The translations under genes were made by a program, and so were the position numbers. This document shows, one piece after another, positions 2,513 to 48,225 of a DNA stretch of 64,000 bases (the stretch's first letter is position 1; every line of letters begins with the position of its first letter). The stretch is taken from assembly GCA_965224085.1 (NCBI GenBank), contig CBDCYI010000004.1:1312001-1376000 (forward strand), read 5' to 3'. The stretch comes from Candidatus Marinacidobacterales bacterium. GTDB lineage: Bacteria > Acidobacteriota > Vicinamibacteria > Marinacidobacterales > SMYC01. The notes beneath the pieces were generated by a model that made no database searches, was not told the origin of the DNA, and saw nothing but the letters and a program-made list of their open reading frames with translations.

Positions 2513-2521
2513 TGGCTCGAG

Positions 2522-8915: not shown

Positions 8916-8955
8916 ATATCGGCCGTCCTGTATATTGGCATCGAGGCAATCACCA

Positions 8956-9309: not shown

Positions 9310-9324
9310 AGACTGGAAGTGAAT

Positions 9325-9843
9325 ATGCCGGAAATGCCGTCTTTTCTCACAAGTCGACTCGATGAAGCCCTGGGCTGGGCTCGGAAGTTCTCGATTTTCC
9401 AATACCCGTTCGTGACGGCTTGCTGCGGGATGGAGTACATGGCAACGGCCTGCTCTCACTACGATGTCGACCGCTTCGGAGCCGGCCTCCCCAGATTCTC
9501 GCCGCGCCAGTCCGACGTTCTCTTCGTGGTCGGTACGATCAGTCACAAGATGGCTCCGGTCTTGGTGCGCATCCATGAGCAGATGGCCGAGCCCAAGTGG
9601 GTGGTCGCCTTCGGCGTCTGCACCTGCACGGGCGGTTTCTACGACAACTACGCGACCGTGATGGGCATCGATACGGTCATGCCGGTGGACGTCTACATAC
9701 CAGGATGCCCGCCGCGGCCGGAGATGGTCCTCGACGGCCTGATGAAGCTCCAGAACAAGATCCAGAACGAGCGCACGAGCGGCAAGCGGCCGACGCCCGA
9801 AGAGCGCCCGGAGGAGCTATTGAAAGGGCGAATCGAGGTATGA
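9325..9843 (+). CDS. nuoB: NADH-quinone oxidoreductase subunit B
   Basis: TACCGME, SPRQSD, GVC, VDVYIPGCPPRPE (cluster N2 ligands). Confidence 0.96.
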   Translation: MPEMPSFLTSRLDEALGWARKFSIFQYPFVTACCGMEYMATACSHYDVDRFGAGLPRFSPRQSDVLFVVGTISHKMAPVLVRIHEQMAEPKWVVAFGVCTCTGGFYDNYATVMGIDTVMPVDVYIPGCPPRPEMVLDGLMKLQNKIQNERTSGKRPTPEERPEELLKGRIEV

Positions 9844-10424
9844 ATACCTCTTCCCTGATCGAGTCGGTGACCAAGCGCTTTCCCGATGGCGTGTCGGCTT
9901 CCCACAACTACCGGGGCGACGCGACCGTCGTTGTGCGGCCGGGCTCGCTTCTCGACGTGGCTCGCTTCCTCAAGGAAGACCCGGACTTCTCGATGAACTT
10001 CCTCGTGGACGTGACCGCCGTCGACTACTCGGCTTTCGGCAAAGCGCCGGCTCCAGCTTTCTTCGCCTCCTCCGGAGTAGCCGTGACACCCATGTCTCAG
10101 ATTCCGGATCTCGACCCGTGGCCCGGGCCGCCGGACAAAGCGCGCTTCGTGGTCGTCTACCACTTCTACTCGATGGCCAAAAAGCACCGGCTACGACTGC
10201 AGATTCTGATAGAAGACGAAACCTCCCCGGAGGTGGATTCTCTGACGTCGCTCTGGCCCGGAGCCAACTGGCTGGAGCGCGAGGTCTGGGACATGTTCGG
10301 GATCGGTTTTCGCGGGCATCCCGACCTCAAGCGCATCCTCATGTACGAAGAGTTCGAAGGCCACCCGCTGCGCAAGGACTATCCCGTCAGCAAGCGCCAG
10401 CCCCTAATAGGACCCGTCAACTAG
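9840..10424 (+). CDS. nuoC: NADH-quinone oxidoreductase subunit C
   Basis: DVTAVDY, ANWLEREVWDMFG, HPDLKRIL, GHPLRKDYP; ATG at 9840. Confidence 0.95.
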   Translation: MNTSSLIESVTKRFPDGVSASHNYRGDATVVVRPGSLLDVARFLKEDPDFSMNFLVDVTAVDYSAFGKAPAPAFFASSGVAVTPMSQIPDLDPWPGPPDKARFVVVYHFYSMAKKHRLRLQILIEDETSPEVDSLTSLWPGANWLEREVWDMFGIGFRGHPDLKRILMYEEFEGHPLRKDYPVSKRQPLIGPVN

Positions 10425-10426
10425 AC

Positions 10427-11785
10427 ATGACCACGCACACGACTCCCAACAAGGCCGCGCGTCTCGAAACACGGGAAATGATGCTCAACATCGGTCCCGC
10501 ACATCCGGCCATGCACGGCATCGTCCGTCTCGTGACCAGGCTCGAGGGCGAGGAGATAAGAGGGGCCGAAGTGGAGATTGGCTACCTCCACCGCGGCTTC
10601 GAGAAGATGGCGGAAACCGTCGACTATAACGGCGTCATGCCCTACACCGACCGGCTCAACTATGTATCGCCGCTGATCAATAACATGGGCTACTGCATGA
10701 CGATGGAGAAGCTCTTGGGGATCGAAGTCCCTGAGCGCTGCCACTACATTCGGGTCATTCTTTCGGAGATCTCGCGGATCGGGGACCATCTCACCTGCGT
10801 GGGTGCGACCGCCATGGAGCTCGGGGCGTTCACTGTCTTTCTCTACATGATCAAGGCCCGGGAATACCTCTGGGATCTCGTGGAGAAGGTGACCGGGGCA
10901 AGGATGACCGTGAGCTACTGCCGCGTCGGCGGCGTAAAGGCAGACCTGCAGGACGATTTCGCCGAGCCCTGCAAAAAGGCGTTCGTGGAGACCCGCAAAG
11001 TCCTTGAGGAAACGCACGGGCTCTTGACGCGCAACCGCATCTTCACCGATCGTATGAACGGCACCGGGGTGATTTCCGCCGAAGACGCCATCTCTTACGG
11101 GATCACGGGCCCCTTCCTTCGCGCCACCGGCGCGGAGTACGACGTCCGCAAAGACTGCCCGTACGCTGTCTACGATCGCCTGCCCTTCGACGTGCCGGTA
11201 GGGACCCGAGGCGACAACATGGATCGCTACCTCGTCCGCATGGAAGAGATGGAGCAGTCGATACGCATCGTGGAGGCCGCTCTTCGCGACCTGCCACCTG
11301 GACCGGTGCTGACCAACCCGGAAACCGGGCGCCCGATCCCCGCCGCCGAGATGGTCGACCTCGCCAAGGTGGGGAACATCGACGCCATCTCGGGCGGTTG
11401 CGCCGTCGCCGGTCCGACGCTCGAAGGTTCCGGTCGGGCTCAGCATCCGTCGATTGCAGCGGACCAGAAACAAGTCTTCCTGCCGGCAAAGGAGGACACC
11501 TACGGGAACATCGAAGGGCTGATGCAGAATTTCAAGCTGGTCATGTACGGCCACGGCGTGCGGGCGCCGAAGGGTGAGGTCTATTTCCCGGTGGAAGGGG
11601 CCAATGGGGAGCTGGGGTTTTACGTCGTGAGTGACGGAAGCGGAGGGCCCTACCGATTGCGTTGTCGCCCGCCCTGCTTCGCCATCATGTCGGCGCTGCC
11701 CATACTCCTCGAGGGGGACATGGTGTCCGACCTCATTCCTACTTTCGGCTCAGTGAACATGATCGGTGGGGAGCTCGACCGTTGA
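10427..11785 (+). CDS. nuoD: NADH-quinone oxidoreductase subunit D
   Basis: NIGPAHPAMHG, GYLHRG, DRLNY, EGANGELG, GELDR; no NiFe CxxC motifs. Confidence 0.95.
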   Translation: MTTHTTPNKAARLETREMMLNIGPAHPAMHGIVRLVTRLEGEEIRGAEVEIGYLHRGFEKMAETVDYNGVMPYTDRLNYVSPLINNMGYCMTMEKLLGIEVPERCHYIRVILSEISRIGDHLTCVGATAMELGAFTVFLYMIKAREYLWDLVEKVTGARMTVSYCRVGGVKADLQDDFAEPCKKAFVETRKVLEETHGLLTRNRIFTDRMNGTGVISAEDAISYGITGPFLRATGAEYDVRKDCPYAVYDRLPFDVPVGTRGDNMDRYLVRMEEMEQSIRIVEAALRDLPPGPVLTNPETGRPIPAAEMVDLAKVGNIDAISGGCAVAGPTLEGSGRAQHPSIAADQKQVFLPAKEDTYGNIEGLMQNFKLVMYGHGVRAPKGEVYFPVEGANGELGFYVVSDGSGGPYRLRCRPPCFAIMSALPILLEGDMVSDLIPTFGSVNMIGGELDR

Positions 11786-13575
11786 AACTGTCTGATCTCG
11801 AAGGCAAAGCTGCGGAGATTCTCGAGCGCTACGAGTACCCCAAGGCGGCCATGCTGCCTCTCTTGTGGCTCGTTCAAGAGCATCAAGGCTACGTCGCACC
11901 GGACGCAGAGGACTGGGTCGCAGGTATCTTGGGAGTGTCCCGCTCCAAGGTGCGCGAGGCCGTCTCCTTCTACAACATGTTCCACACCAAGCCGGTGGGC
12001 CGGCGCGAGCTCCGCGTCTGCACGAGCTTGCCGTGCATGCTGCGCGGCTCCGGCAATCTGCTCAATCGAATCGAGAAAGCGTTGAACATCCGCCCCGGCG
12101 AGACCACCCCTGGGGGCGAGGTGACCCTCACCGAAGTCGAGTGCTTGTGCGCCTGCGAAATGTCGCCCATGGCTCAACTCGACGAACGCTTCGTCGGTCC
12201 TCTCGAAGGCGAAACGGTCGGCATGATCGTCCACGACGCGCTGACAGAGCCCGCTAGCCCGGAGTCGACCCCGGAGCCCACGCCCTACATCTCTACGGAT
12301 GGGCCGGTGCTTTCTCTGCACTTCGAGAATCCCGATGGGACATGGATGGATAGCTACGTGGCCGATGGCGGGTACGTCGCGGCCAAGAAGGCACTCACCT
12401 CGTTGACGCCGAAGCAGGTGACCGACGAGGTTCTTGGTGCCAATCTACGCGGACTGGGCGGCGCAGGGTTCCCCACCGGTAGGAAGTGGTCGTTCATCCC
12501 CGCGGACACGGACAAGCCAAAATACCTCGTTGTCAACGCCGACGAGGGCGAGCCCGGTACCTTCAAGGACCGCTACCTCATGGAGCGCGACCCACACGCG
12601 CTGCTCGAAGGCATGCTTATCGCCGCTTACGCCATCGACTGTCACAAAGCCTATGTCTATATCCGCGGTGAGTACTTCCGATCGGCACATCGCCTACAGC
12701 GCGCCATCGACGAGGCCCACGAAAGCGGCTGGCTTGGCAAGGACATAAAGGGGACGGGTTTCGATCTGGATGTCGTCATCCACCGCGGCGCGGGGGCGTA
12801 CATTTGCGGCGAAGAGACGGCGCTTCTGACCTCGCTCGAAGGGGGGAAGGGCTTTCCACGGCTCAAGCCCCCCTTCCCTGCGATCTCGGGTCTCTTCTCC
12901 TGCCCTACGATCGTTAATAATGTTGAGACCCTGTGCTGTGTGCCGTTCATTCTGCGCCAAGGAGTCGATCGATTCAAGGAGATCGGCACCGAGACTCAGG
13001 GCGGCACGCGTCTGTTCTGCGTCAGCGGGCACGTGGTCACGCCCGGCGTCTACGAGGCGCCGGTCTCTATCACACTACGAGAGCTGATCGAGAGGGCCGG
13101 TGGTATCCGCGACGGCAACCAGCTCAAGGCCGTTATCCCCGGAGGCATCTCGGCCAAGATCCTGACCGCCGATGAGATCGACGTTGCCATGGACTTCGAT
13201 TCCCTCCGCGCCGCAGGCACCATGGCCGGGTCCGGAGGTGTCATCGTCATGGACGATACCACGTGCATGGTGGAGGCGCTGGCGTCGGCCGCCAAGTTCT
13301 TCGCGGACGAGTCGTGCGGACAGTGCTCGCCGTGCCGTGAAGGAACCGGCTGGGTACTTCGTATCGTGCACCGCATCCTCGAAGCGCGGGGGAAGGTTCA
13401 GGACCTGGATGACCTGCTCGCCATCGCCGGCGACATGGAAGGAAAGACCATCTGCGTTTTCGCGGATGCGGCCGCATGGCCGGTGCAATCCTACATCGTG
13501 AAATTCCGGAGCGAGTTCGAGGAGTACATCCGCACGGAGCGTTCCATCCGAAGCACCCAGGCCGCCCATGCCTAG
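11782..13575 (+). CDS. nuoEF: Fused NADH-quinone oxidoreductase subunits E and F
   Basis: N-terminal NuoE ligands CTSLPC/CLCAC, then a Pro/Thr/Glu linker, then NuoF motifs GGAGFPTG, NADEGEPG, YICGEET, CGQCSPC...C. TTG start overlaps the nuoD stop. Confidence 0.93.
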   Translation: MKLSDLEGKAAEILERYEYPKAAMLPLLWLVQEHQGYVAPDAEDWVAGILGVSRSKVREAVSFYNMFHTKPVGRRELRVCTSLPCMLRGSGNLLNRIEKALNIRPGETTPGGEVTLTEVECLCACEMSPMAQLDERFVGPLEGETVGMIVHDALTEPASPESTPEPTPYISTDGPVLSLHFENPDGTWMDSYVADGGYVAAKKALTSLTPKQVTDEVLGANLRGLGGAGFPTGRKWSFIPADTDKPKYLVVNADEGEPGTFKDRYLMERDPHALLEGMLIAAYAIDCHKAYVYIRGEYFRSAHRLQRAIDEAHESGWLGKDIKGTGFDLDVVIHRGAGAYICGEETALLTSLEGGKGFPRLKPPFPAISGLFSCPTIVNNVETLCCVPFILRQGVDRFKEIGTETQGGTRLFCVSGHVVTPGVYEAPVSITLRELIERAGGIRDGNQLKAVIPGGISAKILTADEIDVAMDFDSLRAAGTMAGSGGVIVMDDTTCMVEALASAAKFFADESCGQCSPCREGTGWVLRIVHRILEARGKVQDLDDLLAIAGDMEGKTICVFADAAAWPVQSYIVKFRSEFEEYIRTERSIRSTQAAHA

Positions 13576-15208
13576 CCTGAGCCGCTTGACCATTGACGGC
13601 CGCGAGATCACCGTTCCCGAAGGAACCACGGTCATCCAGGCGGCGGAGCAGCTCGGGATCTTCATTCCTCGCTACTGCTACCACCCCGGCCTATCGATCG
13701 CCGGCAACTGCCGCATCTGTCTCGTCGAAGTCGAGAAATCCCCCAAGCTGGAGATCGCCTGCAACCTGGCGGTTCGGGAGGGGATGGTCGTGCACACCCA
13801 GAGCGACGAGGCCGAGGACGGGCGCCGGTCCGTGCTGGAGTTTCTCCTCGCCAACCACCCGCTCGACTGCCCGGTCTGCGACCAGTCCGGTGAATGCGAC
13901 CTGCAGAACTTCTACATGAACTTCGGGCTCTACGACCCGAGGTTCCGGGAGCAGAAGGTCAAGAAGAAAAAGGCCGTGGAGCTAGGCCCCCATGTGATGC
14001 TTGACCAGGAGCGCTGTATCCTGTGCTCCCGCTGTGTGCGCTTCACAGACGAGATTACCGAGACCGGTGAGTTCGGCATCTTCAACCGCGGCGACCGGGC
14101 GGAGCTTGGGATCTATCCTGGTGAGGTGCTCGACAATCCCTACTCGGCGAACGTGGTGGACATCTGTCCGGTCGGCGCCCTAACCGAGAAGGACTTCCGC
14201 TTCGCGGCCAGGGTCTGGTACCTGTCGAGCGCCCCAACCGTCTGCAACGGCTGCAGTCAAGGCTGCAACGTCGATCTACACTTCGTGCTCGACAGGCCTC
14301 ATCTGAACGACGGGGCTAGGCTCGTGCGCATCAAGCCCCGCTACAACCCGGACGTCAACCAATGGTGGTTGTGCGACGAGGGGCGCTACGGCTTCGGCTG
14401 GCTGGATCAGGCACGGATCACGAAAGTGCGGCAGGGGCCGGCGGCGGACGGAGCGAACGGAGATGCAACCTGGGAGCAGGCCCTCACCGCAATCTCGATG
14501 ACCCTGGCGGAGTTGGACAAGGGCCGGATCGCCGTGATGGCCTCGGCTCAGCTCACCAACGAAGAGCTCTTCCTGATCCGAGAGATTCTCCAGAATTCCC
14601 TGGGAGCCCGAGTCAGCGCCTCCGTTTCAGACAAGCCCGGCTCGGCCGACGACTTTCTCATCAAGGGCGACAAGAATCCCAACACTCGGGGAGCGACGCT
14701 GTTGGGTTTGGCCGGCCCCGAGGCACCGGATGCCGAACAGATCATGGACGAGGCCGCCTCTGGGAACCTCGGTGCCCTATGGGTCTTCGGGCACGATCTG
14801 GTGGAGCTCTTTGGCGAGGAAAGAGTTCGGGAGCTCGCAAAGAAAGTGGGTCTCTTCGTCTTGTCGGGCACCAACGACAACGCGACCGTGCCGTTCGCCC
14901 ATTGGGTACTGCCGAGCGCCGCCTACATGGAGAAGGATGGCACCTTCGTCAACTGTCACGGCCGCGTCCAGCGCATCGGCCGGGCCTTCGCACCTCTCGA
15001 GGACGCGCGTGAGGATTGGCGCGTTCTCCTGGATTTAGCCGGGCGGTTGGGTCAGTCGCTGAACTGGCGCGGACCGCAAGAGATCTTCGACGGCTTGGCC
15101 AAGGCGTCTAGCCTCTTCGGGGGATTGAGCTACGACGCCATCGGCGCGCAAGGGGCTGACATTACGACAGCCGCTCCCGCTACTGAGCTTGACGCGGTCG
15201 AGCCATGA
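13568..15208 (+). CDS. nuoG: NADH-quinone oxidoreductase subunit G (short form, 546 aa)
   Basis: GNCRIC, HPLDCPVCDQSGEC, CILCSRC, DICPVGAL, CNGCSQGC...C. Confidence 0.93.
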   Translation: MPSLSRLTIDGREITVPEGTTVIQAAEQLGIFIPRYCYHPGLSIAGNCRICLVEVEKSPKLEIACNLAVREGMVVHTQSDEAEDGRRSVLEFLLANHPLDCPVCDQSGECDLQNFYMNFGLYDPRFREQKVKKKKAVELGPHVMLDQERCILCSRCVRFTDEITETGEFGIFNRGDRAELGIYPGEVLDNPYSANVVDICPVGALTEKDFRFAARVWYLSSAPTVCNGCSQGCNVDLHFVLDRPHLNDGARLVRIKPRYNPDVNQWWLCDEGRYGFGWLDQARITKVRQGPAADGANGDATWEQALTAISMTLAELDKGRIAVMASAQLTNEELFLIREILQNSLGARVSASVSDKPGSADDFLIKGDKNPNTRGATLLGLAGPEAPDAEQIMDEAASGNLGALWVFGHDLVELFGEERVRELAKKVGLFVLSGTNDNATVPFAHWVLPSAAYMEKDGTFVNCHGRVQRIGRAFAPLEDAREDWRVLLDLAGRLGQSLNWRGPQEIFDGLAKASSLFGGLSYDAIGAQGADITTAAPATELDAVEP

Positions 15209-16299
15209 TCGAAATCCTGGCCATAAAGGTCGCTCTGGCGGGAATGGTCTTTCTCGCGGTCCTGAATCTGGCCGGGTTTCATACCTGGGTGGAGCGCAAG
15301 CAGTCAGCCCTCATCCAGGACCGCATCGGGGCCAACCGCGCTAGCATCTTTGGCTTTCGGGCGCTGGGACTCTTCCATGGCCTCGCCGATCCGATCAAGA
15401 TGTTCACCAAGGAGGACATCGTCCCGACCGGAGCGGACAAGGTCCTCCATACTCTGGCCCCGTTCTTCTCGGTCTTTTTCGCCTTGGTGACCTTTGCCGC
15501 GATTCCCTTCGGTGACCAGCTCATCCTTTTCGACCGCGTCATCGACCTGCAGGTGGCTAAAATCAACGCGGCGCTGCTCTACGTCTTCGCCATGCTCTCC
15601 CTCGGAGTCTACGGCGTGATCCTCGCCGGCTTCGCTTCGCGCAACAACTACGCGATCATGGGCGGGCTGAGAGCAACCGCGCAGATGATCTCGTATGAGA
15701 TTGCTCTGGGCATCTCCATCGTCGGCGTGATCATGGTCTACGGGACCATGGACCTGGCCGAGCTGGTGCGGGCCCAGGGATACATGATCGGCGGGTGGAT
15801 CCCGATGTGGGGAATCGTCACCCAGCCTGTCGCTTTCATCGTCTTTTTGACCGCGGCCCTCGCTGAGACCAAAAGAGTCCCCTTCGACCTACCGGAAGCA
15901 GAGTCGGAGATCATCGGGTACTTCGTCGAGTACAGCGGCATGAAGTTCGGAATGTTCTTCCTCACCGATTTCCTCGAGACCATCGTGGTGGCGTGCCTCG
16001 CAACGACCCTCTTCTTCGGCGGATGGCAAGTGCCCTTCCTCTTGCCGGACGGCTTCCACTTCCCCTGGGGAGGAGAGCTCCAGCTCGCCAACTGGTTCTA
16101 CGCGCTCCTCGGAGTGACGAGCTTCTCGATCAAGGTCTTGATCTTCTGCTTCGTGTTCATGCAGATACGATGGACCCTGCCGCGCTTCCGCTACGATCAG
16201 CTCATGAGCCTCGGCTGGAAAGGGCTCTTCCCGATCGCAGTGGCCAACACCGCGCTCACCGCAGTCGTGCTAGTTATCTTCTTCGGGGAGAGCACCTGA
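15205..16299 (+). CDS. nuoH: NADH-quinone oxidoreductase subunit H
   Basis: ERK, DRIG, ADPIKMFTKE, AQMISYE, RVPFDLPEAESE, PRFRYDQL. Confidence 0.96.
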   Translation: MIEILAIKVALAGMVFLAVLNLAGFHTWVERKQSALIQDRIGANRASIFGFRALGLFHGLADPIKMFTKEDIVPTGADKVLHTLAPFFSVFFALVTFAAIPFGDQLILFDRVIDLQVAKINAALLYVFAMLSLGVYGVILAGFASRNNYAIMGGLRATAQMISYEIALGISIVGVIMVYGTMDLAELVRAQGYMIGGWIPMWGIVTQPVAFIVFLTAALAETKRVPFDLPEAESEIIGYFVEYSGMKFGMFFLTDFLETIVVACLATTLFFGGWQVPFLLPDGFHFPWGGELQLANWFYALLGVTSFSIKVLIFCFVFMQIRWTLPRFRYDQLMSLGWKGLFPIAVANTALTAVVLVIFFGEST

Positions 16300-25728: not shown

Positions 25729-27679
25729 CTTAAGCGGAGCTTCCGCCGGCTAGACGCATGTAAACCCGTACGTTTAAAGCAGATGTGGCCGTTCTAAGTG
25801 TAATCAGTACGCATGTAATAATAACGGTATGGTTGATAATGCTGATTAGATCCTGTATAGTCGGCGCATGTACATCGCCAAGGTGCCGAACCGTAACTCG
25901 CCCCCAGCGATTCTCATTCGCGAAAGCTACCGCGAAGGCGGTAAGCCCAAAACGAGGACCGTCGCCAACATCTCGAAGTGGAAGCCCGCTCGAATTGAAG
26001 CTCTTCGCCAGTTGCTGAAGGGCAACGTGGATTTGGGTGAGGCTCAGCAATTCGAGATCACCAGAAGCAAACCTCACGGACATGTTGCGGCCGTGCTGGG
26101 AACGCTGCGCAAAGTTGGCCTCGAGCGAATCATCCATAGCCGCCAGCGCCGAGAGCGTGACCTCGTGGTGGCGATGATTGTGGCGCGAATCGTAGAGCCG
26201 GGCTCCAAGTTGGCCACGGCCCGTGGTCTATCGAAACAGACCTTGACTTCGTCTTTGGGTGAGTGTGTTGGAGTTGAAGACTCCAACGAGGATGAGTTGT
26301 ATGAGGCCCTGGATTGGCTTTTGAGCCGCCAAGCTGCCATAGAGAAGAAACTGGCGAAACGCCATCTGCAGCAGGGCAGCTTGGTTCTCTACGACTTGAC
26401 GTCGACTTGGGTGGAAGGTCGGTCGTGCCCTCTGGCGAAGCTCGGTTACTCGAGAGACGGCAAGAAAAACAAACTGCAGATCGTGTTCGGCTTACTGTGT
26501 GAGCGTAATGGTCGGCCGGTCGGGGTAGAGGTGTTCGAAGGCAACACCGGAGATCCCGCAACACTGGGGAGCCAAATTCGCAAAGTCCGAGAACGTTTTG
26601 AGCTTGACAATATCGTCTTCGTAGGTGACCGAGGGATGATCACCGAAGCTCGGATTCGCGAGGAACTTCGACCAGAGGAAGGTCTCGAGTGGATCAGCTC
26701 ACTTCGTGCCCCGCAGATTCAGCGACTTGCAAAAGACGGAATGCTACAGCCTTCTCTGTTCGATGAGGTCGACCTAGCGGAGATCCATCATCCTAACTTT
26801 CCTGGTGAGCGACTCATTGCTTGTCGCAACCCTCTTCTTGCTGCCGAGCGGGCACGGAAACGGGAAGAGATGCTTGTGTCGACGGAGTCGAAGCTAGAAG
26901 TGATTCGCAAAGCGACGAAGCGAGACCAGCGTCCTTTGCGAGGCAAAGATACCATCGGCATACGATTGGGTCGAGTGTTCGCTCGGAGCAAGATGGGCAA
27001 GCACTTTCGCTACACCATTACGGACGACAGCTTCGACTTCGAGCGCGACAACGATAACATCGAGCGTGAGGCGACCCTCGACGGTATCTATATCATTCGT
27101 ACAAGCCTCACCGAAGAGGCCATCTCCGCAGACGAAGCTGTCAAGACCTACAAAGGCTTGGCAGTCGTTGAACGCGCTTTTCGTTGCTGCAAAACCGTGG
27201 ATTTGAAAGTACGGCCCATCTATCACTACAACGCTGAGCGAGTTCGAGCTCACATCTTTCTTTGCATGCTCGCCTACTACGTGGAATGGCACATGCGAAA
27301 AGCCCTCGCCCCGATCTTGTTTGACGACGACGACACTGACGGTGCCCAAGCCAAACGCTCATCCATCGTCAGCCCAGCAACGTCTTCAGACTCCGCCCAG
27401 GCAAAGGCTTCTACCAAGAAGTCTCCCGATGGGTTGCCCGTCCACAGTTTCAGAACGCTTCTTTCTGATCTTGCTACGGTCACGAAAAATCAAGTCGAAA
27501 ACGACGCCCGCGGCCTGTCCTTCGTCAGCGTTACTCGCCCTACACCCTTGCAGCACAAAGCATTCAACCTCCTCGGAATCAATCCCCGCACGATGTAAGC
27601 AGTACACACGCCTCTCTTAAAAAACAAGACTAATGATGCCAACACTTACGCTTGTTCATCTGTGGAAGTTCCGCTTAAG
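25729..27679 (+). mobile_element. IS1634-family insertion sequence
   Basis: Ends cttaagcggagcttcc and ggaagttccgcttaag form a 16-bp inverted repeat with 1 mismatch. The outer palindromic CTTAAG may be the target duplication. Confidence 0.88.
25868..27598 (+). CDS. IS1634-family transposase
   Basis: LYDLTSTWVEG, GYSRDGK, VFVGDRGMI, YKGLAVVERAFR, RPIYH, RVRAHIFLCMLAY. Confidence 0.93.
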   Translation: MYIAKVPNRNSPPAILIRESYREGGKPKTRTVANISKWKPARIEALRQLLKGNVDLGEAQQFEITRSKPHGHVAAVLGTLRKVGLERIIHSRQRRERDLVVAMIVARIVEPGSKLATARGLSKQTLTSSLGECVGVEDSNEDELYEALDWLLSRQAAIEKKLAKRHLQQGSLVLYDLTSTWVEGRSCPLAKLGYSRDGKKNKLQIVFGLLCERNGRPVGVEVFEGNTGDPATLGSQIRKVRERFELDNIVFVGDRGMITEARIREELRPEEGLEWISSLRAPQIQRLAKDGMLQPSLFDEVDLAEIHHPNFPGERLIACRNPLLAAERARKREEMLVSTESKLEVIRKATKRDQRPLRGKDTIGIRLGRVFARSKMGKHFRYTITDDSFDFERDNDNIEREATLDGIYIIRTSLTEEAISADEAVKTYKGLAVVERAFRCCKTVDLKVRPIYHYNAERVRAHIFLCMLAYYVEWHMRKALAPILFDDDDTDGAQAKRSSIVSPATSSDSAQAKASTKKSPDGLPVHSFRTLLSDLATVTKNQVENDARGLSFVSVTRPTPLQHKAFNLLGINPRTM

Positions 27680-34155: not shown

Positions 34156-34742
34156 CTGAGCGGGTGCGCTCCATCGCCTAAAGGCGATGGGTTCGCGGGC
34201 GACTAAAGTCGCCTAAAGGCGCACGGCGGAGGATTACTCGCTTACCCTGAACGACTCGTCGTCTTCCGGCAGCTCTCCTTGCAGCTCGATGTACTTGGCC
34301 ACAACCTCATCGGTCACGTTTCCGCTCGTCGCTACAAAATAGCCGCGCGCCCACAGGTGCCGACCCCAAAACTTCTTGCGGATCGCTCGAAAATCACGCA
34401 TCAGCTTGTGCGATGTCTTCCCCTTGATCGCCTGCATTACTCGGCTCGGCGACAGCCGTGGCGGCACGCTCAGCAACAGATGAACGTGCTCTGGCCGTAC
34501 ATGGCCCTTCAGTATTTCTATGTGGTGCGTCGCACAGATCTCTCTTATCAACTCCCGCAGGCGAAGTGCTACATCTCCTCTCAATACCGGCTTGCGGTAC
34601 TTCGGGATGAATACGAAATGGTAGTTTAATTGATACGTCGTGTGCGATGATTTCCGATATCCTTTCATCCGGGGATCGTACCGCAAGCCTCCTAAAGGCT
34701 TCGCCTGAAGGCGAGGGGTTTCAACCATCCCCGAGTGAGACA
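34156..34742 (-). mobile_element. IS200-type element (tnpA only), inserted 3' of TTAG with no TSD
   Basis: Subterminal hairpins (ccatcgcctaaaggcgatgg; ggcgactaaagtcgcc; tcgcctgaaggcga). Removal restores TTGAACTAAGCCGC. Confidence 0.85.
34234..34668 (-). CDS. tnpA: IS200/IS605-family Y1 transposase
   Basis: YHFVFIPKYRK, HVH (HUH), KGKTS, LWARGYFV, catalytic YI..Q. Confidence 0.95.
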   Translation of the reverse strand: MKGYRKSSHTTYQLNYHFVFIPKYRKPVLRGDVALRLRELIREICATHHIEILKGHVRPEHVHLLLSVPPRLSPSRVMQAIKGKTSHKLMRDFRAIRKKFWGRHLWARGYFVATSGNVTDEVVAKYIELQGELPEDDESFRVSE

Positions 34743-34978
34743 CTAAGCCGCCCAGCTAGCGGCAACTATGCATAAATTGGAGTGAGAAGACGGTCGGACA
34801 GGAAGTCGGAGTTGGACGTCAGGGAGTTGCGAATCGACAGAGATATGGCGGGGAAGATAGAAGAAGGGCCTACCCGGTGCGGTAACCACCACGGTAGCGT
34901 TATGAGTTCGCGACGAGACACACGAGTCCGTTTCAACGACCGGTCGGCGTTGTGAGAGGCGGAGCGAAAGCATCGTGA

Positions 34979-36226
34979 TCATGACTCATCTGGAGGGGAG
35001 CGGATCTGGAGGTTGATCCGTCGAAGCTTCGTGGAGAGAGGGCATCGGAGCATGCGACCTTTCTTGCAGCGGGGACAGATGGTGAGGTCGATGCCGGTGA
35101 GCTCCTTGAGCCGCTCGCGCCAGTCCTTGTCCTCGGTGGCACGCGAGCTGACTTGCACGTCGTCGGCGTCGGTCGTGGGTTTTGTTTTCTCATCGAGCAA
35201 CTGGCGCGCGACTACGAGCTTGGTGGTCGCATTGGAGGAGGCCATTAAGCCGAAATGGCGAATCTTGACGAAACCTTTCGGCAGTACGTGCAGGAGGAAA
35301 CGGCGGATAAATTCCTCTGGGGGGACGGTAACGGTATTACCATTCTTGGTGGCGAAGCAGACGCCGTAGTGGTCGATGCGAATGAGTCGGCGGTTGGAGA
35401 TGCCGACCCGGTGGGTATATCGGCCGAGGTAGTTGAAAACCTGCTCTGGGCCACCGAAGGGTCGTTTGCTGTAAACGACCCAATCGATGCGGTAGAGCTT
35501 GTCTTTCAGCTCCCGGAAGCGAGGTGGGTTTCTGAGGTGGGAAGCGTTTGCGCTCAACTCAAGCTCATCTTGGTCGTAAGCGAGCCTAAGGGCATCGAGA
35601 AACTTGCTGCGAAAAAGCCGCGACATGGCCTTGACGGGAAACAGAAAGCGAGGGTTTGCGGCGTTCCACAGCTGCTGAGGGTGGTTGAGCCCGCCCCCGG
35701 AGACGATGCAATGCAGGTGTGGATGGAACAGGAGCTTCCGGGTCCAGGTGTGCAGTACGGCGGTGAAGGCAAGTTGAGCTTCGAGCCGGCTTTGGCCGAA
35801 CTCCAATAGAGTTCGCGAGGCGGCGCGAAACAGGAGGTTGAACATGAACTTGGGATTGTCTCGGGCGAGAGGCTTGAGTTGCTGCGGGAGGGTGAAAACG
35901 ACGTGGAAATAGTGAGTCGGAAGAATCCTCTGAGCTCGCTGCTCCATCCACTTCGCCTGGGCTAGGCTCTGACACTTGGGACAGTGCCGATTGCGGCACG
36001 AGTTAAACGAAGGCGCCGCGTATCCGCAAGCGTTACACACGTCGAGATGGCCACCTAGCACCGCCGTGCGACAGTTCTCTATAGCCCACATCACCTTGCG
36101 CTGCTCGGCTGTCAGCGCATGGGTTTGGCGAAAGCGTGGACCATGTTCGCGGAAGATTTCCGCGATCTCGAGCAGTGGCCGTGGTGGTGACTCGACGCGG
36201 GAAGGACACAGCCCATGGGGCTGCAT
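34979..36226 (-). CDS. IS91-family (Y2) transposase with a Zn-binding domain
   Basis: CRT..LGG, SCRNRHCPKC, HVVFTLP, LHTW..HPHLH, YLGRY, IRHFG, CPRC. Confidence 0.94.
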   Translation of the reverse strand: MQPHGLCPSRVESPPRPLLEIAEIFREHGPRFRQTHALTAEQRKVMWAIENCRTAVLGGHLDVCNACGYAAPSFNSCRNRHCPKCQSLAQAKWMEQRAQRILPTHYFHVVFTLPQQLKPLARDNPKFMFNLLFRAASRTLLEFGQSRLEAQLAFTAVLHTWTRKLLFHPHLHCIVSGGGLNHPQQLWNAANPRFLFPVKAMSRLFRSKFLDALRLAYDQDELELSANASHLRNPPRFRELKDKLYRIDWVVYSKRPFGGPEQVFNYLGRYTHRVGISNRRLIRIDHYGVCFATKNGNTVTVPPEEFIRRFLLHVLPKGFVKIRHFGLMASSNATTKLVVARQLLDEKTKPTTDADDVQVSSRATEDKDWRERLKELTGIDLTICPRCKKGRMLRCPLSTKLRRINLQIRSPPDES

Positions 36227-36232
36227 GATGAG

Positions 36233-36488
36233 CTAGCCGAGCTTTTTGCCCTTCTTCGTTCCCAGCAAATCGAGAGGGCTCTTGATGCGCCCCAAGTGCT
36301 TTGCTGTTACCTTTGTGTAACGGGCCGTGGTCTGGATGGAGGCATGACCGAGCAGTTGCTGCACGGTACGAATGTCTTCACCCAGTTCGAGCATATGTGT
36401 GGCAAAACCGTGGCGCAGCGAATGAGGAGTGATACGTTTGGTGAGCCCCGCCTCAGCCACGGCCTTACGAAGAGCCCAGCGAACGCCA
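36233..36488 (-). pseudogene. 3' fragment of a tyrosine recombinase (matches the tail of 42557-43417)
   Basis: [19 protein letters not shown]. Confidence 0.88.
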
Positions 36489-41897: not shown

Positions 41898-42033
41898 TCT
41901 TGACTCACCTGGCAGTACCCGTCTGGTCAAAATACTCGAACGCCCGGCGGTCAGCAGTTTGCACCTTCCGAAAGGCGGCTTGAACCCGCCATCGCGGTCG
42001 GATACGTATTCCAGTTCACCGGAAGGAGTGACG

Positions 42034-42556: not shown

Positions 42557-43417
42557 ATGGGATGCCTTAGCGAAAAAATGCTTGCCGACATGAAACTGAA
42601 GGGGTTCGCACGCTCCACGCAGGAGGAGTATCTGCTGCGAGCGCGCCATTTCGCGGCACATTACATGCGCTCACCCGCCGAGATGGGCGAGCCGGAGACC
42701 CGCGATTATCTGATTCATCTCGTTAACGAGAAGAAGGCCTCTCCGGCCAGCCACCACATGTACGTCGCCTCTCTCAAGTTTCTCTACGCAACCACACTCA
42801 ACCGCCCGGAGGAGGTGGCGAAGATTCCTTGGCCCAAGAAACCTCGCACGTTACCCGATATCTTGAGCGGCGAGGAGGTCGATTGTTTGCTTCACTCCGT
42901 TAACTCCGTCAAACACCGCGCGATTCTCATGAGCGCCTACGGCGCCGGGCTGCGCGTTTCCGAGGTGTGCTGTCTGAAGCACTCCGACATCGACTCCAAA
43001 CGCATGCTCTTGCACATTCGTCACGCCAAGAACTCCAAGGCCCGCTATGTCACGCTCAGCGAACGTTTGTTGAGCTTCCTGCGCTACTACTGGAAAACCA
43101 CTCGCCCTCGCGGAGAGTACTTGTTTCCCGGCCGTAATCCTGGTGCCCACATCTCAGACGATGGCGTTCGCTGGGCTCTTCGTAAGGCCGTGGCTGAGGC
43201 GGGGCTCACCAAACGTATCACTCCTCATTCGCTGCGCCACGGTTTTGCCACACATATGCTCGAACTGGGTGAAGACATTCGTACCGTGCAGCAACTGCTC
43301 GGTCATGCCTCCATCCAGACCACGGCCCGTTACACAAAGGTAACAGCAAAGCACTTGGGGCGCATCAAGAGCCCTCTCGATTTGCTGGGAACGAAGAAGG
43401 GCAAAAAGCTCGGCTAG
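42557..43417 (+). CDS. Tyrosine recombinase/integrase
   Basis: YGAGLRVSE (Arg), AKNSK, HSLRH, LLGH, TTARY (Tyr); GGAGG RBS. Confidence 0.94.
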   Translation: MGCLSEKMLADMKLKGFARSTQEEYLLRARHFAAHYMRSPAEMGEPETRDYLIHLVNEKKASPASHHMYVASLKFLYATTLNRPEEVAKIPWPKKPRTLPDILSGEEVDCLLHSVNSVKHRAILMSAYGAGLRVSEVCCLKHSDIDSKRMLLHIRHAKNSKARYVTLSERLLSFLRYYWKTTRPRGEYLFPGRNPGAHISDDGVRWALRKAVAEAGLTKRITPHSLRHGFATHMLELGEDIRTVQQLLGHASIQTTARYTKVTAKHLGRIKSPLDLLGTKKGKKLG

Positions 43418-43423
43418 CTCATC

Positions 43424-43592
43424 ATGCAGCCCCATGGGCTGTGTCCTTCCCGCGTCGAGTCACCACCACGGCCACTGCTCGAGATCGCGGAAATCTTCCG
43501 CGAACATGGTCCACGCTTTCGCCAAACCCATGCGCTGACAGCCGAGCAGCGCAAGGTGATGTGGGCTATAGAGAACTGTCGCACGGCGGTGC
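43424..43592 (+). pseudogene. Truncated IS91 transposase
   Basis: First 56 codons match the 34979-36226 product. Confidence 0.88.
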
Positions 43593-43855
43593 CTTGGTGC
43601 ACAACTCCGATAGAGGCCGAGAGCTCGCTTGGCCCCGACTCCCATCATCCGATCATCTCGCTATCAGACATCCCGAGCGCCGTCATGGTGTTGAGAATCT
43701 TGCACCCGATCCTTGCCTCGACTCTCTGTGCCGCCAACCCTCTCGCTCGCATCGCTGAGCCCACGATAGCCTTGTAGCGATGGAACGTTGTCTCGACTTT
43801 GCTCCGTTTGCTGTAGCCCGATTCTGTGTGCCACTTTCGTTTGCCGAGCCGAGCT
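43591..43855 (-). mobile_element. 3' remnant of an IS5-family (IS903-like) element with its terminus
   Basis: KWHTESGYSKRSKVETTFHRYK...KILNTMTALG*; end GCCTTGGTGCAC coincides with the IS91 truncation point. Confidence 0.75.
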
Positions 43856-44597
43856 TGTGCTGCAATGTATAGAAAATGACGAATATTGGGACGATCTAAT
43901 AAGAAATTGGCAATAGATGTCAATTACAAAACACGGGCGGACGGTAAAATAGGGCCGCATGACGGAACATTCTGATACGAATATCAACGACACGGCTGTC
44001 GAGCGTCACTGGTTCAGCGGCGAAGCCGGAGATCTGCTGACCCGGATCGACAACGGGCTGAAGAAGGCTGGGAAATCTCTCTCCCGCCTCACAGCGGAGG
44101 ATGTGCTTGCGTTTGATGAGTTTCACATTCGCGGCCGCGAAGCGACCGTCGAGCTGTCCCGCCTCGCCAAGATCCAGACCTCTCACGAGGTCATAGACAT
44201 CGGGTCCGGGTTGGGCGGTCCATCGCGTTTTATAGCATCTAGCATCGGCTGCAGGGTTACCGGCATCGATCTCACAGCGGAATATTGTCAGGTTGCGCAG
44301 GTCCTGGCTGATCGAATGGGACTCGAGGAGCGCGTTCATTACCGCCAAGGCAGTGCATTGGAATTGCCATTTCCGGATGCGTCCTTCGATATCGCCTGGA
44401 CTCAGCATATTTCCATGAACATCCAGGATAAGTCCGCGATGTTCTCCGAGATGTACCGGGTGTTGAAACCGGGTGGGCGCGCTGCCATCTACGATCCCAT
44501 TGCCGGTTCCGGAGAACCGTTGACCTTTCCAGTCCCATGGTCAAAAGATGGTGCGATCAATTTTCTCATCGATACTCAGGAAACGAAGGAAACGCTG

Positions 44598-45042
44598 GGG
44601 GCTTATATCCATGACTAGACAAGCCCCTATTTGGATTCACGAATCAGAAAAAAGCCCTCATAGATGAGCAAGGAGACCGCAAACGGCACCATAACCAGCC
44701 ACAAGGTCCCGCTCTCCAGTCCATTGCCCGCCATCTTCGCCAGGTAATTGTAGGGTATAAATGAACCAGCGCCCCCACCAGGACCGTCACCTCGAGCCGA
44801 GGCCATTCGGTTTCGCCCCGCATCGAACCGAGGATTTTATCGATGAAAACGAGTACGAGGGCGACGATTGCGAAAGGGTCGATCCAATCGAATATGGGCT
44901 TGGCCGCAGCGGGATTGACGGCGTAGAAGAAGTTGTTGAGCGTCAAAACGAAAGCTACGATGAGCATGAAGCATCCTTTTAGTGACCGCATATTTCATCT
45001 TCTCCTATTCTTCTGTCGTGTCTAGTCATGGATATAAGCCCC
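44598..45042. mobile_element. Non-autonomous mobile insertion cassette (MIC/MITE) with a passenger gene
   Basis: Perfect 24-bp TIR GGGGCTTATATCCATGACTAGACA; 8-bp TSD AAACGCTG at 44590-44597 and 45043-45050; no transposase. Confidence 0.92.
44627..44991 (-). CDS. Passenger small membrane protein (about 4 TM; probable frameshift near 44753)
   Basis: AGGAG RBS; three TM segments; a shifted frame gives NYLAKMAG..LWLVMVPFAVSLLIYEGFFLIRESK*. Confidence 0.6.
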
Positions 45043-45370
45043 AAACGCTGACTGCCGCCGGCTTCACCATAGGAAACTGGCGAGATGTGAGCCAAGCATC
45101 GCTGGCCTGGTTCAAAGACAACGCCCCCCCAGCCGATGCCGAGCCACCCATTCTAGGATTTCATTTGCTGCTCGGCCCGCTATGGCCCACCATGGCTGCC
45201 AACATGGTGGGTAATATCGCCGCGGGTCGGCTTGCGGTGATCCAAACCATCGTTCGAAAACCACAATCTCTAGCTATTTAGACGCGCGCCAGCAGAGCAT
45301 CCACGAGATCGAGCAACGCATCACGGCTAGCCGGCTTTGATCTGATTATTTACAAGAGACGGAGGTAGAC

Positions 45371-47038
45371 ATGAAACGCATGGGTTTCCTTTCAGTTGTC
45401 GTCGTATGGCTCGCATCGGGCTGTGACCCGCCCGCGCAGAGTAGCGGCACAGCCGTTATGAGTGCCGATGGAAAAGCGCTTGGCACCGTCCAGTTCCCGA
45501 CGTCGTGTGACCCGCAAGCTCAGGAGCTACTCGAGCGCGCTCTGGCCCTTCTTCATCACATGACGTATAGACCGGCCGAAATGAGCTTCGCATCTGCGGC
45601 CGAGAACGATCCCGAATGCGCGATCGCCTATTGGGGCATGGCGATGACGTACGTACACCCGCTATGGCCCGACAGCGTGCCAACGGAGCAGCTCACGAGC
45701 GGCCAAGAGCTTCTCGAGCGCGCCCGGGCCGCCGACCATACGAGCGATCGCGAAAGCGCTTACATCGAAGCGCTCGCGGGCTACTACGGTGACGACGCGA
45801 GCCCGCGCGCCGAGCGAGAGCGCCTGGGAGGCTTCCTCGATGGCTGGTCCCGGGTCCACGAGATGTATCCAGACGATCCCGAAGCGGCACTCTTTCACGC
45901 GCTCGCCCAATTGGGGACCGCGGCGGCGTCCGATAAAACCTACGCGAACCAACAATCGGGCGGAAGCATCGTAGCCGAAGTTCTCGCGCAGATACCGTCG
46001 CACCCGGGAGCACATCACTATTTGATTCACGCCTACGACTTCCCGCCGCTCGCACAACGCGCACTCGAGACCGCACGCCACTACGGCGAAGTCGCGCCCG
46101 AGAACTCACACGCGCTTCACATGACGACCCACATCTTCACGCGCCTCGGCCTGTGGCCCGAGTCGATCGAGTTCAACATCCGCGCGGCGAACGCGGCAAG
46201 CGAGCGCATGCCTTCGGGAACGATCTCTTTGCACCACCTCCATGCGATCGACTACCTGGCCTACGCGCATTTGCAACGTGCGGATGACGAAGCGACCCTC
46301 GAAGTGCTTCGTGCGCTTCGCGCGCTCGAGCCGCCGTTTCAGAATCACGCGGGAACGTCCTACACGTTCGCCGCGGTGCCCGCGCGCTACGCGTTGGAAC
46401 GCCACGCGTGGGAGGAAGCCATAGAGGTGGAAGCCCGCTGGCCAGACGACGTGCCTTGGGATCAGTACCCTCACCTCGAAGCTATCTCCCACTTCGCGCG
46501 AGCCATGGGTGCCGCGCGCACCGGCCAACGCGACAAGGCGCAGGCCGCGATCGAATCGCTGGCGCGTTTAGAAAAAGCTGCGGCCTCGCTGGACATCGCG
46601 TATGACTGGGGAATCCAAGTCGCCATCCAGCGCACCGCCGCCGAAGCGTGGTTGGCCTACGAAGGCGGCGACACGGACCGGGGTCTCGAGTTGATGCAAA
46701 AAGCGGCCGAGATGGAAGCGTCGACGGAGAAAAACCCGGTCACGCCGGGCGAAGTACTACCGGCCATGGAGCTCTACGGCGACATGCTTCTCGCCGCGGC
46801 CCGATACGACGAAGCCCGGCAGCAATACGAAGCCGCGCTCACCCGCTCGCCAAATCGCTTCAACAGCTTGTACGGCTCCGGACGTGCCGCCGAGCTCGCT
46901 GGCGATGCGGACGCTGCGGCGTCTTCTTACGCCGCGCTTGTCGAGAGCTGCTTGGAATCCGGGGAGCGCGAAGCGCTCGTTCACGCGCGGGACTACCTCG
47001 AGACAAAAGGACGTGAGAAAAAATTAATATTTGACTAG
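45371..47038 (+). CDS. TPR-repeat lipoprotein with His-rich motifs
   Basis: Lipobox LASGC; HPGAHHYLIH, HALHMTTHIF; C-terminal TPRs. Confidence 0.85.
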   Translation: MKRMGFLSVVVVWLASGCDPPAQSSGTAVMSADGKALGTVQFPTSCDPQAQELLERALALLHHMTYRPAEMSFASAAENDPECAIAYWGMAMTYVHPLWPDSVPTEQLTSGQELLERARAADHTSDRESAYIEALAGYYGDDASPRAERERLGGFLDGWSRVHEMYPDDPEAALFHALAQLGTAAASDKTYANQQSGGSIVAEVLAQIPSHPGAHHYLIHAYDFPPLAQRALETARHYGEVAPENSHALHMTTHIFTRLGLWPESIEFNIRAANAASERMPSGTISLHHLHAIDYLAYAHLQRADDEATLEVLRALRALEPPFQNHAGTSYTFAAVPARYALERHAWEEAIEVEARWPDDVPWDQYPHLEAISHFARAMGAARTGQRDKAQAAIESLARLEKAAASLDIAYDWGIQVAIQRTAAEAWLAYEGGDTDRGLELMQKAAEMEASTEKNPVTPGEVLPAMELYGDMLLAAARYDEARQQYEAALTRSPNRFNSLYGSGRAAELAGDADAAASSYAALVESCLESGEREALVHARDYLETKGREKKLIFD

Positions 47039-47069: not shown

Positions 47070-47261
47070 ATGGGATACGTGACGAAGCTGCAGGTGATAA
47101 AGCGAGCCAACGATACGCGTCAGTTCTATGTGATTTGCCCGTCGCCTTTGGCGCAGGCGCTGGAGATGGAGCCTGGCGAGGAGCTTGAGTGGGTCGTCGA
47201 GGATCGGAACACACTGATAGTTCGTCGGACGCCGCGGGTGAAGCGTGGTAAACGTGGGTGA
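47070..47261 (+). CDS. Small AbrB/MazE-like DNA-binding protein upstream of a transposase
   Basis: QFYVICPSPLAQALEMEPGEELEW swapped-hairpin pattern. Confidence 0.55.
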   Translation: MGYVTKLQVIKRANDTRQFYVICPSPLAQALEMEPGEELEWVVEDRNTLIVRRTPRVKRGKRG

Positions 47262-47815
47262 GAAGCAAGCATCGCTACCTGGTATGCCGAGTCCGCGAAA
47301 ACGTGGCGATGACGGTGATGAAGGAGCGCGCGCGACACAAGCTCGGTTGAAGGTTGTGGATCGGGCGCAGCTGCTGTTGCGGACGGTGGACGTTGAGCAG
47401 TTGATTCCAGAGGATCACGCAGCGCGAGCGATCTGGGAGTTCGTGGGTCGGCTGGACCTCAGCGGGTATACGGAGCAGGTCCACTCGGTCGAGGGTGGTG
47501 CAGGGCGGCCTGCATTCGATCCGCATCTACTGGTGAGCCTTTGGGTCTACAGCTACAGTCAGTCGGTGAGTTCGGCGCGCGCGATTGAGCGGCTGTGCGA
47601 GCATCACCCGGCGTATCAATGGCTGACGGGAATGCAGAGCATCAGTGCCCATACGCTATCGGACTTTCGGGTGACCCATGCCGAGGCGCTGCACGAATTG
47701 TTTGTACAAACGTTGGGTCTTTTGAGTGCGGACGGATTGATCACGCTCGAGCGAGTCATGCTGGATGGGACGCGGATTCGGGCGAACGCATCGGGGAATA
47801 GTTTCCGCACGAAGG
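47254..47815 (+). pseudogene. IS1182-family transposase, 5' fragment
   Basis: LIPEDH, GRPAFDP, SSARAIER, HTLSDFR, DGTRIRANAS; truncated. Confidence 0.82.
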
Positions 47816-48225
47816 GTCGAGTCCCACGACCGGAAGCTTTCCGCTCTTGAGCGACTGAATAACCTCGTCGGCTTGCCGGACCACGCTGCGCGCCGTGCCC
47901 ATGAGCTTGCGATAACTTTGCTTGAACTTGACTTGGCTCGATTCGGTGAACGACTTGCTGGCGCGGTCGATCTCAAGCTGCCTGTTTTTCGTTGATCGGC
48001 TGTGGTCCACCACCTTGAGCGCACCTTGAGCACAAGCCTTTGCAATACACTTCAGACTACGGGTGAGCACCCGGATGCCATCGGCAAGCAGTGAGCTATC
48101 TGTGGGGTAATGGATGTTGCTCTCCAACTACCGTCGTATCCGTGCGTAACTTGCGTCCCGTAGCCACCTTTTCGTCTCGAGCCTGAGCGACCACACGGGC
48201 ATGGATTTTCTGCACTCCCGCCGGA
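47816..48225 (-). pseudogene. ISNCY/IS5-like transposase internal fragment
   Basis: GRKLRTDTTVV, frameshift, ESNIHYPTDSSLLADGIRVLTR. Confidence 0.75.

Follow-up and report, generated by a model that had tools for sequence, protein, structure and literature searches.

A 445-bp transposase-less cassette with a small membrane-protein gene in a methyltransferase gene of a Candidatus Marinacidobacterales bacterium

Mobile insertion cassettes (MICs) are described in passages of two sources (PMC3129680, PMC4133298) as passenger genes between repeats of the insertion sequence (IS) type, devoid of a transposase and thought to be activated in trans by a cognate transposase. Here we describe a 445-bp element at positions 44598–45042 of a 64,000-nucleotide stretch of DNA from a Candidatus Marinacidobacterales bacterium (assembly GCA_965224085.1, contig CBDCYI010000004.1, positions 1,312,001 to 1,376,000), the whole of which is called the window below. 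The element interrupts a methyltransferase gene and carries a single small gene for a predicted membrane protein, and is probably a non-autonomous cut-and-paste or copy-and-paste element of the MIC kind, with the size of a MITE (a miniature transposable element with inverted repeats), that is moved in trans.

The cassette can be compared with several kinds of known element. MIC231 of Bacillus cereus is derived from IS231, a member of the IS4 family (references in PMC2266710). Like the cassette in the window, MIC231 has inverted repeats of the IS type around its passenger or passengers and no transposase, and mobilization in trans is assumed for it, but the cassette differs by its 445 bp with a single gene of 366 nt, by its apparent multicopy state, and by its MITE-like decay. 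MIC231 is about 1.9 kb long and IS231 produces duplications of 10–12 bp, compared with 445 bp and 8 bp for the cassette. The Tn3-derived MICs of Xanthomonas and the qnrD and qnrS2 “mic” units are transposase-less inverted-repeat units that hold effector or resistance genes (PMC4337579, PMC3913671, PMC5444012). The cassette resembles them in being transposase-less, bounded by inverted repeats, and gene-carrying. The Xanthomonas and qnr units measure kilobases, and those derived from Tn3 carry long repeats that begin with GGGG (about 38 bp) and 5-bp duplications. Assignment of the cassette as a Tn3-derived MIC or Tn3-derived inverted-repeat miniature element (TIME) was rejected because of its 8-bp duplication and 24-bp repeats. 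Bacterial MITEs are typically about 30–300 bp, with some of about 400 bp, and feature inverted repeats, target duplications, insertions within genes, and open reading frames (ORFs) unrelated to transposases, according to sections of PMC3184786 (Delihas 2011) and PMC4133298. The ORF-carrying MITEs share with the cassette a similar size class, inverted repeats, duplications, insertion in a gene, and a non-transposase ORF. The ORF of the cassette differs in filling 366 of the 445 bp, in having its own ribosome-binding site, and in having distant stand-alone relatives. In view of this coding share, the ribosome-binding site, and the protein family, it should be regarded as a cargo gene rather than as a fortuitous frame. 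A plain MITE has a core without coding capacity, which does not describe 445 bp with a real gene of 366 bp.

Structurally, the cassette has every attribute of a MIC except an identified partner. We consider it a new and unusually small MIC: MITE-sized, with a single tiny gene of an orphan family, apparently multicopy, and widely decayed. A literature search aimed at element classes, and not at the sequence, returned no published description of the cassette or its protein, which is weak evidence of novelty. The cassette is a clean minimal case from the grey zone between MITEs and cargo transposons, with a gene, a ribosome-binding site, and a 3′ hairpin between two 24-bp ends.

Boundaries and mobility of the cassette

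The cassette and the interrupted gene are composed of the following features, where TIR denotes a terminal inverted repeat, SAM S-adenosylmethionine, and E the expect value; P0052 and P0053 are intact database relatives of the methyltransferase, and L002 is a genome locus with a second copy of the cassette.

43959–44597, plus strand: N-terminal 213 codons of a class I SAM-dependent methyltransferase (Methyltransf_11, E 1.1e-21; Methyltransf_25, E 2.8e-20)
44590–44597: left target-site duplication AAACGCTG, 8 bp, within the methyltransferase codons E-T-L
44598–45042, 445 bp: the transposable element, bounded by 24-bp TIRs, with the 8-bp target duplication outside
44598–44621, plus strand: left TIR, 24 bp, on the 3′ side of the passenger gene, a perfect match to the right TIR
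44598–44627, minus strand: predicted stem-loop of the passenger transcript, GGGGCUU...AAGCCCC, which starts with the final base of the stop codon
44627–44752, minus strand: distal part of the passenger gene, codons 81–121 and the terminal TAG, in a frame other than that of the start codon (97.6% identical by tblastn with the L002 protein)
44755–44991, minus strand: proximal part of the passenger gene, codons 1–79, with the ATG at 44991 and followed by a 1-nt deletion at codon 80
45002–45006, minus strand: AGGAG motif resembling a Shine-Dalgarno sequence, situated 10 nt upstream from the start of the passenger gene, as read from the sequence
45019–45042, minus strand: right TIR, 24 bp, on the 5′ side of the passenger gene; an ATG within it points inward and begins an upstream frame of 16 codons
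45043–45050: right target-site duplication AAACGCTG, 8 bp, abutting the right TIR
45051–45281, plus strand: C-terminal 76 codons and stop of the same methyltransferase, aligning to residues ~214–287 of P0052 and P0053

The sequence GGGGCTTATATCCATGACTAGACA is present at 44598–44621 and its exact reverse complement at 45019–45042 (24/24 positions). When up to three mismatches were allowed, a repeat search of the window gave two matches only, which are the two TIRs, and a match was found in 0 of 100 shuffled sequences. The octamer AAACGCTG directly flanks both TIRs. The size of 445 bp, the perfect 24-bp TIRs, and the 8-bp target duplication, all proposed in a first-pass annotation made from the sequence, are thus correct. 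Together with one copy of the duplication, the element amounts to 453 bp, i.e., 151 codons and a multiple of three, and when these are removed, the flanking 213 and 76 codons form a single frame of 289 amino acids. The insertion point falls at codons 211–213 of the methyltransferase gene, where 8 bp of the target were duplicated.

A protein search with the N-terminal part of the methyltransferase returned 3338 relatives at E ≤ 1e-20, the best of which are 285–287 amino acids long and 90–92% identical. One uninterrupted relative, P0052, has 287 residues and is 92% identical to the N-terminal part. Both P0052 and P0053 span the join (IDTQETKETL on its left side, TA.GFT on its right), and the two window pieces meet exactly in their alignment, with a gap of 0 and an overlap of 0. 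Because intact relatives cross the join in this manner, the octamer is a true target duplication, and these proteins provide the protein-level equivalent of the empty site that the first-pass annotation had advised looking for; its in-frame 289-residue methyltransferase restored by excision is borne out by the same alignment. The two halves are in frame, but stop codons lie between them, and the gene is therefore knocked out, which is one direct cost of the element in the window.

A collection of genome contigs was scanned with a degenerate form of the TIR, and three loci were returned (L001, L002, and L003). The collection evidently lacks the genome of the window, since the exact TIR of the window did not match itself. 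L002 comes from an 8.13-Mb chromosome of a metagenome-assembled genome (MAG) labelled Candidatus Marinacidobacterales, and has a full copy of the cassette at 1579–2024 that is 97.1% identical to the window element over 446 bp, in an unrelated surrounding context. The octamer TTTGAAAT is found on both sides of this copy, as a duplication of its own. The right TIR and the 51-nt leader are identical to those in the window, the left TIR has two mismatches, and the cargo ORF is intact with 121 codons for amino acids. This near-identical copy in a different location, bounded by an 8-bp duplication that differs from the one in the window, establishes that the element is mobile, as had been inferred beforehand, and also that the TIR is not confined to the window. 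Comparing the two copies known at the DNA level, the terminal inverted repeats match in 24/24 positions in the window, whereas in L002 one repeat has 22/24 and the second 24/24; site-specific flanking duplications are present in 2/2 copies, with differing octamers (AAACGCTG versus TTTGAAAT); no frame of the element matches any Pfam or NCBIfam transposase family; and the passenger, a 121-residue ORF with 51 homologous clusters and distant full-length relatives, is unrelated to transposition.

The proteins of the cargo family add to this picture. The database protein P0039 begins with a translated right TIR and leader, and P0047 ends with a translated left TIR, so that the TIRs accompany the cargo gene in other clusters as well. 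The protein clusters of the cargo suggest that the cassette is multicopy.

As for the remaining two loci, L001 (1543–1566) and L003 (2001–2024) each have a solitary TIR-like string with 23/24 matching positions, the rest of the element being absent; they are orthologous loci from two Granulosicoccaceae MAGs. In both loci, the string extends over the start codon of a gene for a membrane protein of the DsbD_2 family (MDISPF...), and this gene adjoins others that by our reading resemble SCO1-type and copper-chaperone genes. We estimate that about 0.5 chance matches are expected for the degenerate TIR pattern, and the two strings are probably chance matches, but they may alternatively represent a relic end that supplies the start codon.

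The cargo gene and its protein family

When the window was searched by tblastn with the intact L002 protein, residues 1–79 aligned to 44991–44755 and residues 81–121 to 44752–44630 in another frame, and the DNA alignment with the intact L002 copy places a 1-nt deletion at codon 80 of the cargo gene in the window. The frame that starts at the ATG at 44991 runs for 115 codons and ends in a tail rich in tryptophan, arginine, and cysteine, and the hydrophobic continuation is found in the second frame, down to a TAG stop at 44629–44627. The cargo copy in the window is dead and delivers no working gene. The first-pass annotation described a minus-strand membrane-protein gene with its own ribosome-binding site; the gene, the AGGAG motif, the four helices, and the length of 121 amino acids stand, whereas in the window the gene is frameshifted and does not work.

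In an intact copy, the cargo would be translated from its own AGGAG and ATG, 51 nt inside the right end. On the opposite side, the left TIR and the adjacent AAGCCCC would constitute the 3′ hairpin of the cargo transcript. The pairing involves GGGGCTT (44598–44604) and AAGCCCC (44621–44627), directly after the passenger stop, and the 71-nt stretch 44580–44650 (minus strand) around the stem-loop has a folding free energy of −17.7 kcal/mol (z −2.0), with 6 of 200 shuffled sequences folding as well. These coordinates and energies agree with the stem between the left TIR and AAGCCCC noted previously, and the stem-loop may serve as the 3′ end of the transcript or as a terminator. A search of the whole window against Rfam gave 0 matches. 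At the right end, the ATG at 45025–45027 (minus strand) inside the TIR opens a 16-codon frame (MTRHDRRIGEDEICGH) that extends to about 44977 and stops overlapping cargo codons 3–4; in P0039, from the database, this frame and the cargo are fused. The arrangement could be a case of translational coupling or a mere coincidence.

The AlphaFold2 model of the cargo protein has four helices (residues 2–25, 27–57, 63–88, and 97–120), with a predicted local distance difference test score (pLDDT) of 80.2 and a predicted template modelling score (pTM) of 0.71. The average numbers of lysine plus arginine residues are 2.1 in the N-terminus, 3.0 in loop 2, and 1.6 in the C-terminus, compared with 1.3 in loop 1 and 1.0 in loop 3. 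Based on these counts, we predict that the protein resides in the inner membrane with both termini inside (N-in/C-in). The assignment of the cargo as a small multidrug resistance protein, a holin, or a member of another known family of small membrane proteins was rejected, since no profile matched above its cut-off. The best Pfam matches are far below the cut-offs (Phage_holin_2, E 0.2–0.68; HlyIII, E 0.073), and in the NCBIfam, PADLOC, PHROGs, and PDB profile searches no match attained a curated cut-off or a significant E (the best were CapE, E 0.016, at 15.1 bits where the cut-off is 35; phrog_13487, E 0.029; and LptG, E 0.048). The best Foldseek matches have E 0.54 for the PDB and E 0.8 for BFVD.

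Close homologues were collected with residues 1–80 of the cargo as query at E ≤ 0.01, which gave 51 clusters among 62 candidates, with 66–99% identity. According to the sum of our table, the 51 clusters hold 253 member sequences, and full-length relatives are typically 121–125 amino acids long. For more distant relatives, a profile of 27 intact members was run against 1.84 billion representatives at E ≤ 0.001. This search with the frameshift-corrected type of passenger, suggested in the first-pass annotation, returned 24 proteins, two of which (P0178 and P0181, long matches in multiple stretches) were left out of examination. Eight of the 24 are full-length matches of 110–140 amino acids (E 1.5e-20 to 4.4e-4) that show 26–39% identity to the L002 protein. 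Asp38, Tyr79, and Trp98 are invariant in these eight proteins, and Lys86 is present in at least 90%. The distant relatives are stand-alone proteins that agree with the cargo in length and in their four-helix layout. Invariant columns are unevenly spread over the protein, at 0/16 in loop 2 and 10/16 in loop 3 (permutation p 0.007). The GC content at codon positions 1, 2, and 3 of the cargo is 0.58, 0.36, and 0.73, respectively. The distant relatives, the periodicity of the codon GC content, and the uneven conservation together speak for a genuine protein-coding gene under selection and against an accidental frame. Longer or fused forms of the cargo were searched for and none was found, which is weak evidence.

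Nature of the interior and the putative mobilizing enzyme

Several observations weigh against the reading of the cassette as a mobile unit with a functional cargo. With respect to the gene, 22 of the 51 cargo clusters are interrupted or truncated, leaving 29 uninterrupted, as called for each cluster by a single-alignment criterion and inspection. A promoter scan of 44400–45250 found 0 sites resembling a sigma-70 promoter, with 0.8 expected, and the cargo gave nothing significant when compared with Pfam, NCBIfam, PADLOC, PHROGs, PDB profiles, the PDB and BFVD by Foldseek, and the ESM Atlas. The window and L002 cargo genes differ by three synonymous and seven non-synonymous changes (in six codons), a comparison that is uninformative with regard to selection because the changes are too few and the window copy is a pseudogene. 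With respect to mobility, copies are known at the DNA level in two instances only, the others being known as predicted proteins without context. Furthermore, the window has no additional matches to the 24-nt TIR or to 16 nt of it, no transposase adjoins the TIR in the three loci of the genome scan, and the window's remaining transposases show ends that are unrelated, or none that match.

These points make it necessary to consider that the cassette is an ordinary MITE, in which the long ORF is incidental and the interior is conserved only because the copies are young, with no functional protein. Apart from the missing promoter-like site and the absence of a known family or fold, this would be supported by the fraction of broken clusters, and by copies with the same frameshift that went on multiplying; that MITEs can carry non-transposase ORFs, a protein product of which is yet to be shown, is noted in part of PMC3184786. 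The breaks occur at a dozen or more different codons, and judging from the clusters, much of the family is decaying. The decay is however not evenly distributed. When the 48 clusters that are ungapped over residues 9–73 were grouped into subfamilies (three were dropped owing to gaps or short overlap), 14 of 22 in the window's own subfamily were broken, compared with 6 of 26 for all other lineages together, i.e., the frame is open in 20 of 26 clusters from diverged lineages. P0005 and P0008, for each of which the longest contig listed has 8,700,493 bp, have the same frameshift as the window, and single residues set the two apart from one another as well as from the window. This pattern suggests that an already broken copy of the cargo kept multiplying, and hence that the cargo is not needed in cis, but it may alternatively stem from segmental duplication or gene conversion. 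In P0006, the same frameshift is accompanied by a second shift that restores the frame. Against an incidental frame stand the open frame in the diverged lineages, the strong GC periodicity over the codon positions, the unevenness of conservation, and relatives of 26–39% identity with the same length and four-helix layout, for which youth of the DNA is no explanation; we therefore regard an incidental ORF as improbable. Another possibility is that the interior represents what deletion has left of a transposase or other transposition gene, in which case we would be dealing with a mere IS deletion derivative and not with a cargo carrier. It has in its favour that such derivatives are the usual origin of MITEs (PMC4133298, in part), but is close to refuted. 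Neither frame matches a transposase family, the product is a four-helix membrane protein with stand-alone distant relatives of 110–140 amino acids, and the longer forms searched for were not found, although this last point is weak. A remnant devoid of passenger homologues is also at odds with the 51 clusters. Chance or faulty assembly as the origin of the TIRs and of the duplication is refuted by the shuffled sequences (0/100 with a TIR match), the exact methyltransferase join, and the independent second copy with its own 8-bp duplication; nothing was found that speaks for it.

The identity of the mobilizing transposase is a separate matter. The first-pass annotation proposed that a search for the TIR would lead to the autonomous partner and to other cargos. 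No partner was found in the window or in the three loci of the genome scan, and the plasmid collection gave no cassette match by DNA or protein. The phage collection gave no protein match, and a single TIR string of 22/25 at chance level (E = 4) was disregarded. The proposed variety of cargo is not supported either, as one of the three loci has the same cargo and the other two the solitary 23/24 string. An enzyme of the IS1595 family is the leading candidate, unverified, and one that we put forward with rather less than even confidence. The IS1595 family includes the IS1016, ISSod11, and ISNwi1 groups and has passenger-carrying members. IS1595 members usually give 8-bp duplications and the ends of IS1016 and Merlin start with GG, as described in portions of PMC8101967 and PMC12561309; the cassette shares the 8-bp duplication (2/2 insertions) and the GG ends, its own ends starting with GGGG. 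The matching autonomous element and a DDE_Tnp_IS1595 transposase were not found in the DNA searched, and in the window specifically, two scans that covered 15 ORFs and 27 ORFs gave no such transposase. The published end consensus of the IS1016, ISSod11, and ISNwi1 groups is presumably similar to GGGGCTTAT. The putative assignment to IS1595/IS1016 draws only on the 8-bp duplication and the GG ends, and these are features shared with other families. Duplications of 8 bp are also produced by IS6, IS256, IS66, ISAs1, and ISKra4. A transposase from a family other than IS1595 has nearly an even chance of being the one that moves the cassette: neither 8-bp duplications nor G-rich ends are exclusive to IS1595, and the scanned ORFs of the window hold no transposase of that type, whereas the regularity of the 8-bp duplications among IS1595 members, the GG ends of IS1016 and Merlin, and the presumed likeness of the group end consensus to GGGGCTTAT point the other way.

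For the non-autonomous cassette with a selected cargo, the following course of events can be envisaged. A DDE transposase encoded elsewhere in the genome would bind the TIRs, make cuts staggered by 8 bp, and move the cassette in trans. Selection would keep the cargo intact along lineages, and the copies produced in bursts within a genome would decay. The function of the cargo is a matter of low-confidence guesswork, where a small-solute or ion-handling protein and an immunity-type protein directed against a membrane-acting toxin are our best suggestions, each of them doubtful; with either one, retaining the cassette would be of use to the host. In a more speculative extension, which we consider unlikely, the element would be a self-spreading “gene in a MITE”, where a selected membrane protein, e.g., one that confers membrane-toxin immunity or exports small solutes or ions, pays for the upkeep of the element, and a transposase located elsewhere spreads a trait of benefit to the host within and between genomes as a package of less than 0.5 kb; the same ends may move other cargos. 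This extension is compatible with the data because 20 of 26 diverged clusters are intact and the distant relatives are stand-alone. Should the cargo turn out to be beneficial, the cassette would amount to a natural unit for gene delivery of very small size, and the orphan four-helix family would gain a testable function. With regard to annotation, it matters that predicted database proteins of the cargo family frequently stem from copies of a mobile repeat, and that many of them are broken.

Genomic surroundings in the window

The window is chromosomal, given the respiratory complex I (nuo-type) gene cluster at 1665–16299, in which an ORF at 11662–13575 fuses a thioredoxin-like 2Fe-2S domain to the 51-kDa flavin mononucleotide (FMN) subunit. 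Other mobile genes are present at several positions. An IS at 25729–27679 encodes a 576-residue DDE_Tnp_1 transposase (25868–27598) and has 16-bp inverted ends CTTAAGCGGAGCTTCC (CTTAAG...), unrelated to the ends of the cassette. A mobile-gene cluster spans 34234–36488 and 42557–43923, and includes an IS200-type Y1 transposase (34234–34743, minus strand), an IS91-type Y2 transposase (34979–36226, minus strand), and a tyrosine recombinase (42557–43417, plus strand). A 438-bp inverted repeat, 36052–36488 versus 43599–43162, is 99.5% identical and brackets about 7 kb that include peptidase, alanine racemase, and thiamine pyrophosphate (TPP)-enzyme genes. The ORF at 47245–47850 encodes a DUF772 domain, as present at the N-terminus of IS5-type transposases. 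No DDE part is recognizable, no inverted ends lie nearby, and the ORF is probably a relic.

The window (43764–43868) and L002 (2656–2760) have a stretch of 105 bp in common, with 100% identity, which lies less than 1 kb from the cassette in both genomes. It is located inside ORFs that by our reading resemble fragments of IS5-type transposases, for which no family search gave a match. Another 61 bp are common to the window (41917–41976) and L002, with a 90% match. The two stretches are other small repeats common to both genomes. The G+C content is 0.50–0.57 at 43650–45450, whereas the window as a whole has 0.61. This patch of lower G+C content adjoins the recombinase and the IS fragments and includes the methyltransferase gene with its neighbours, and the region may be an island.

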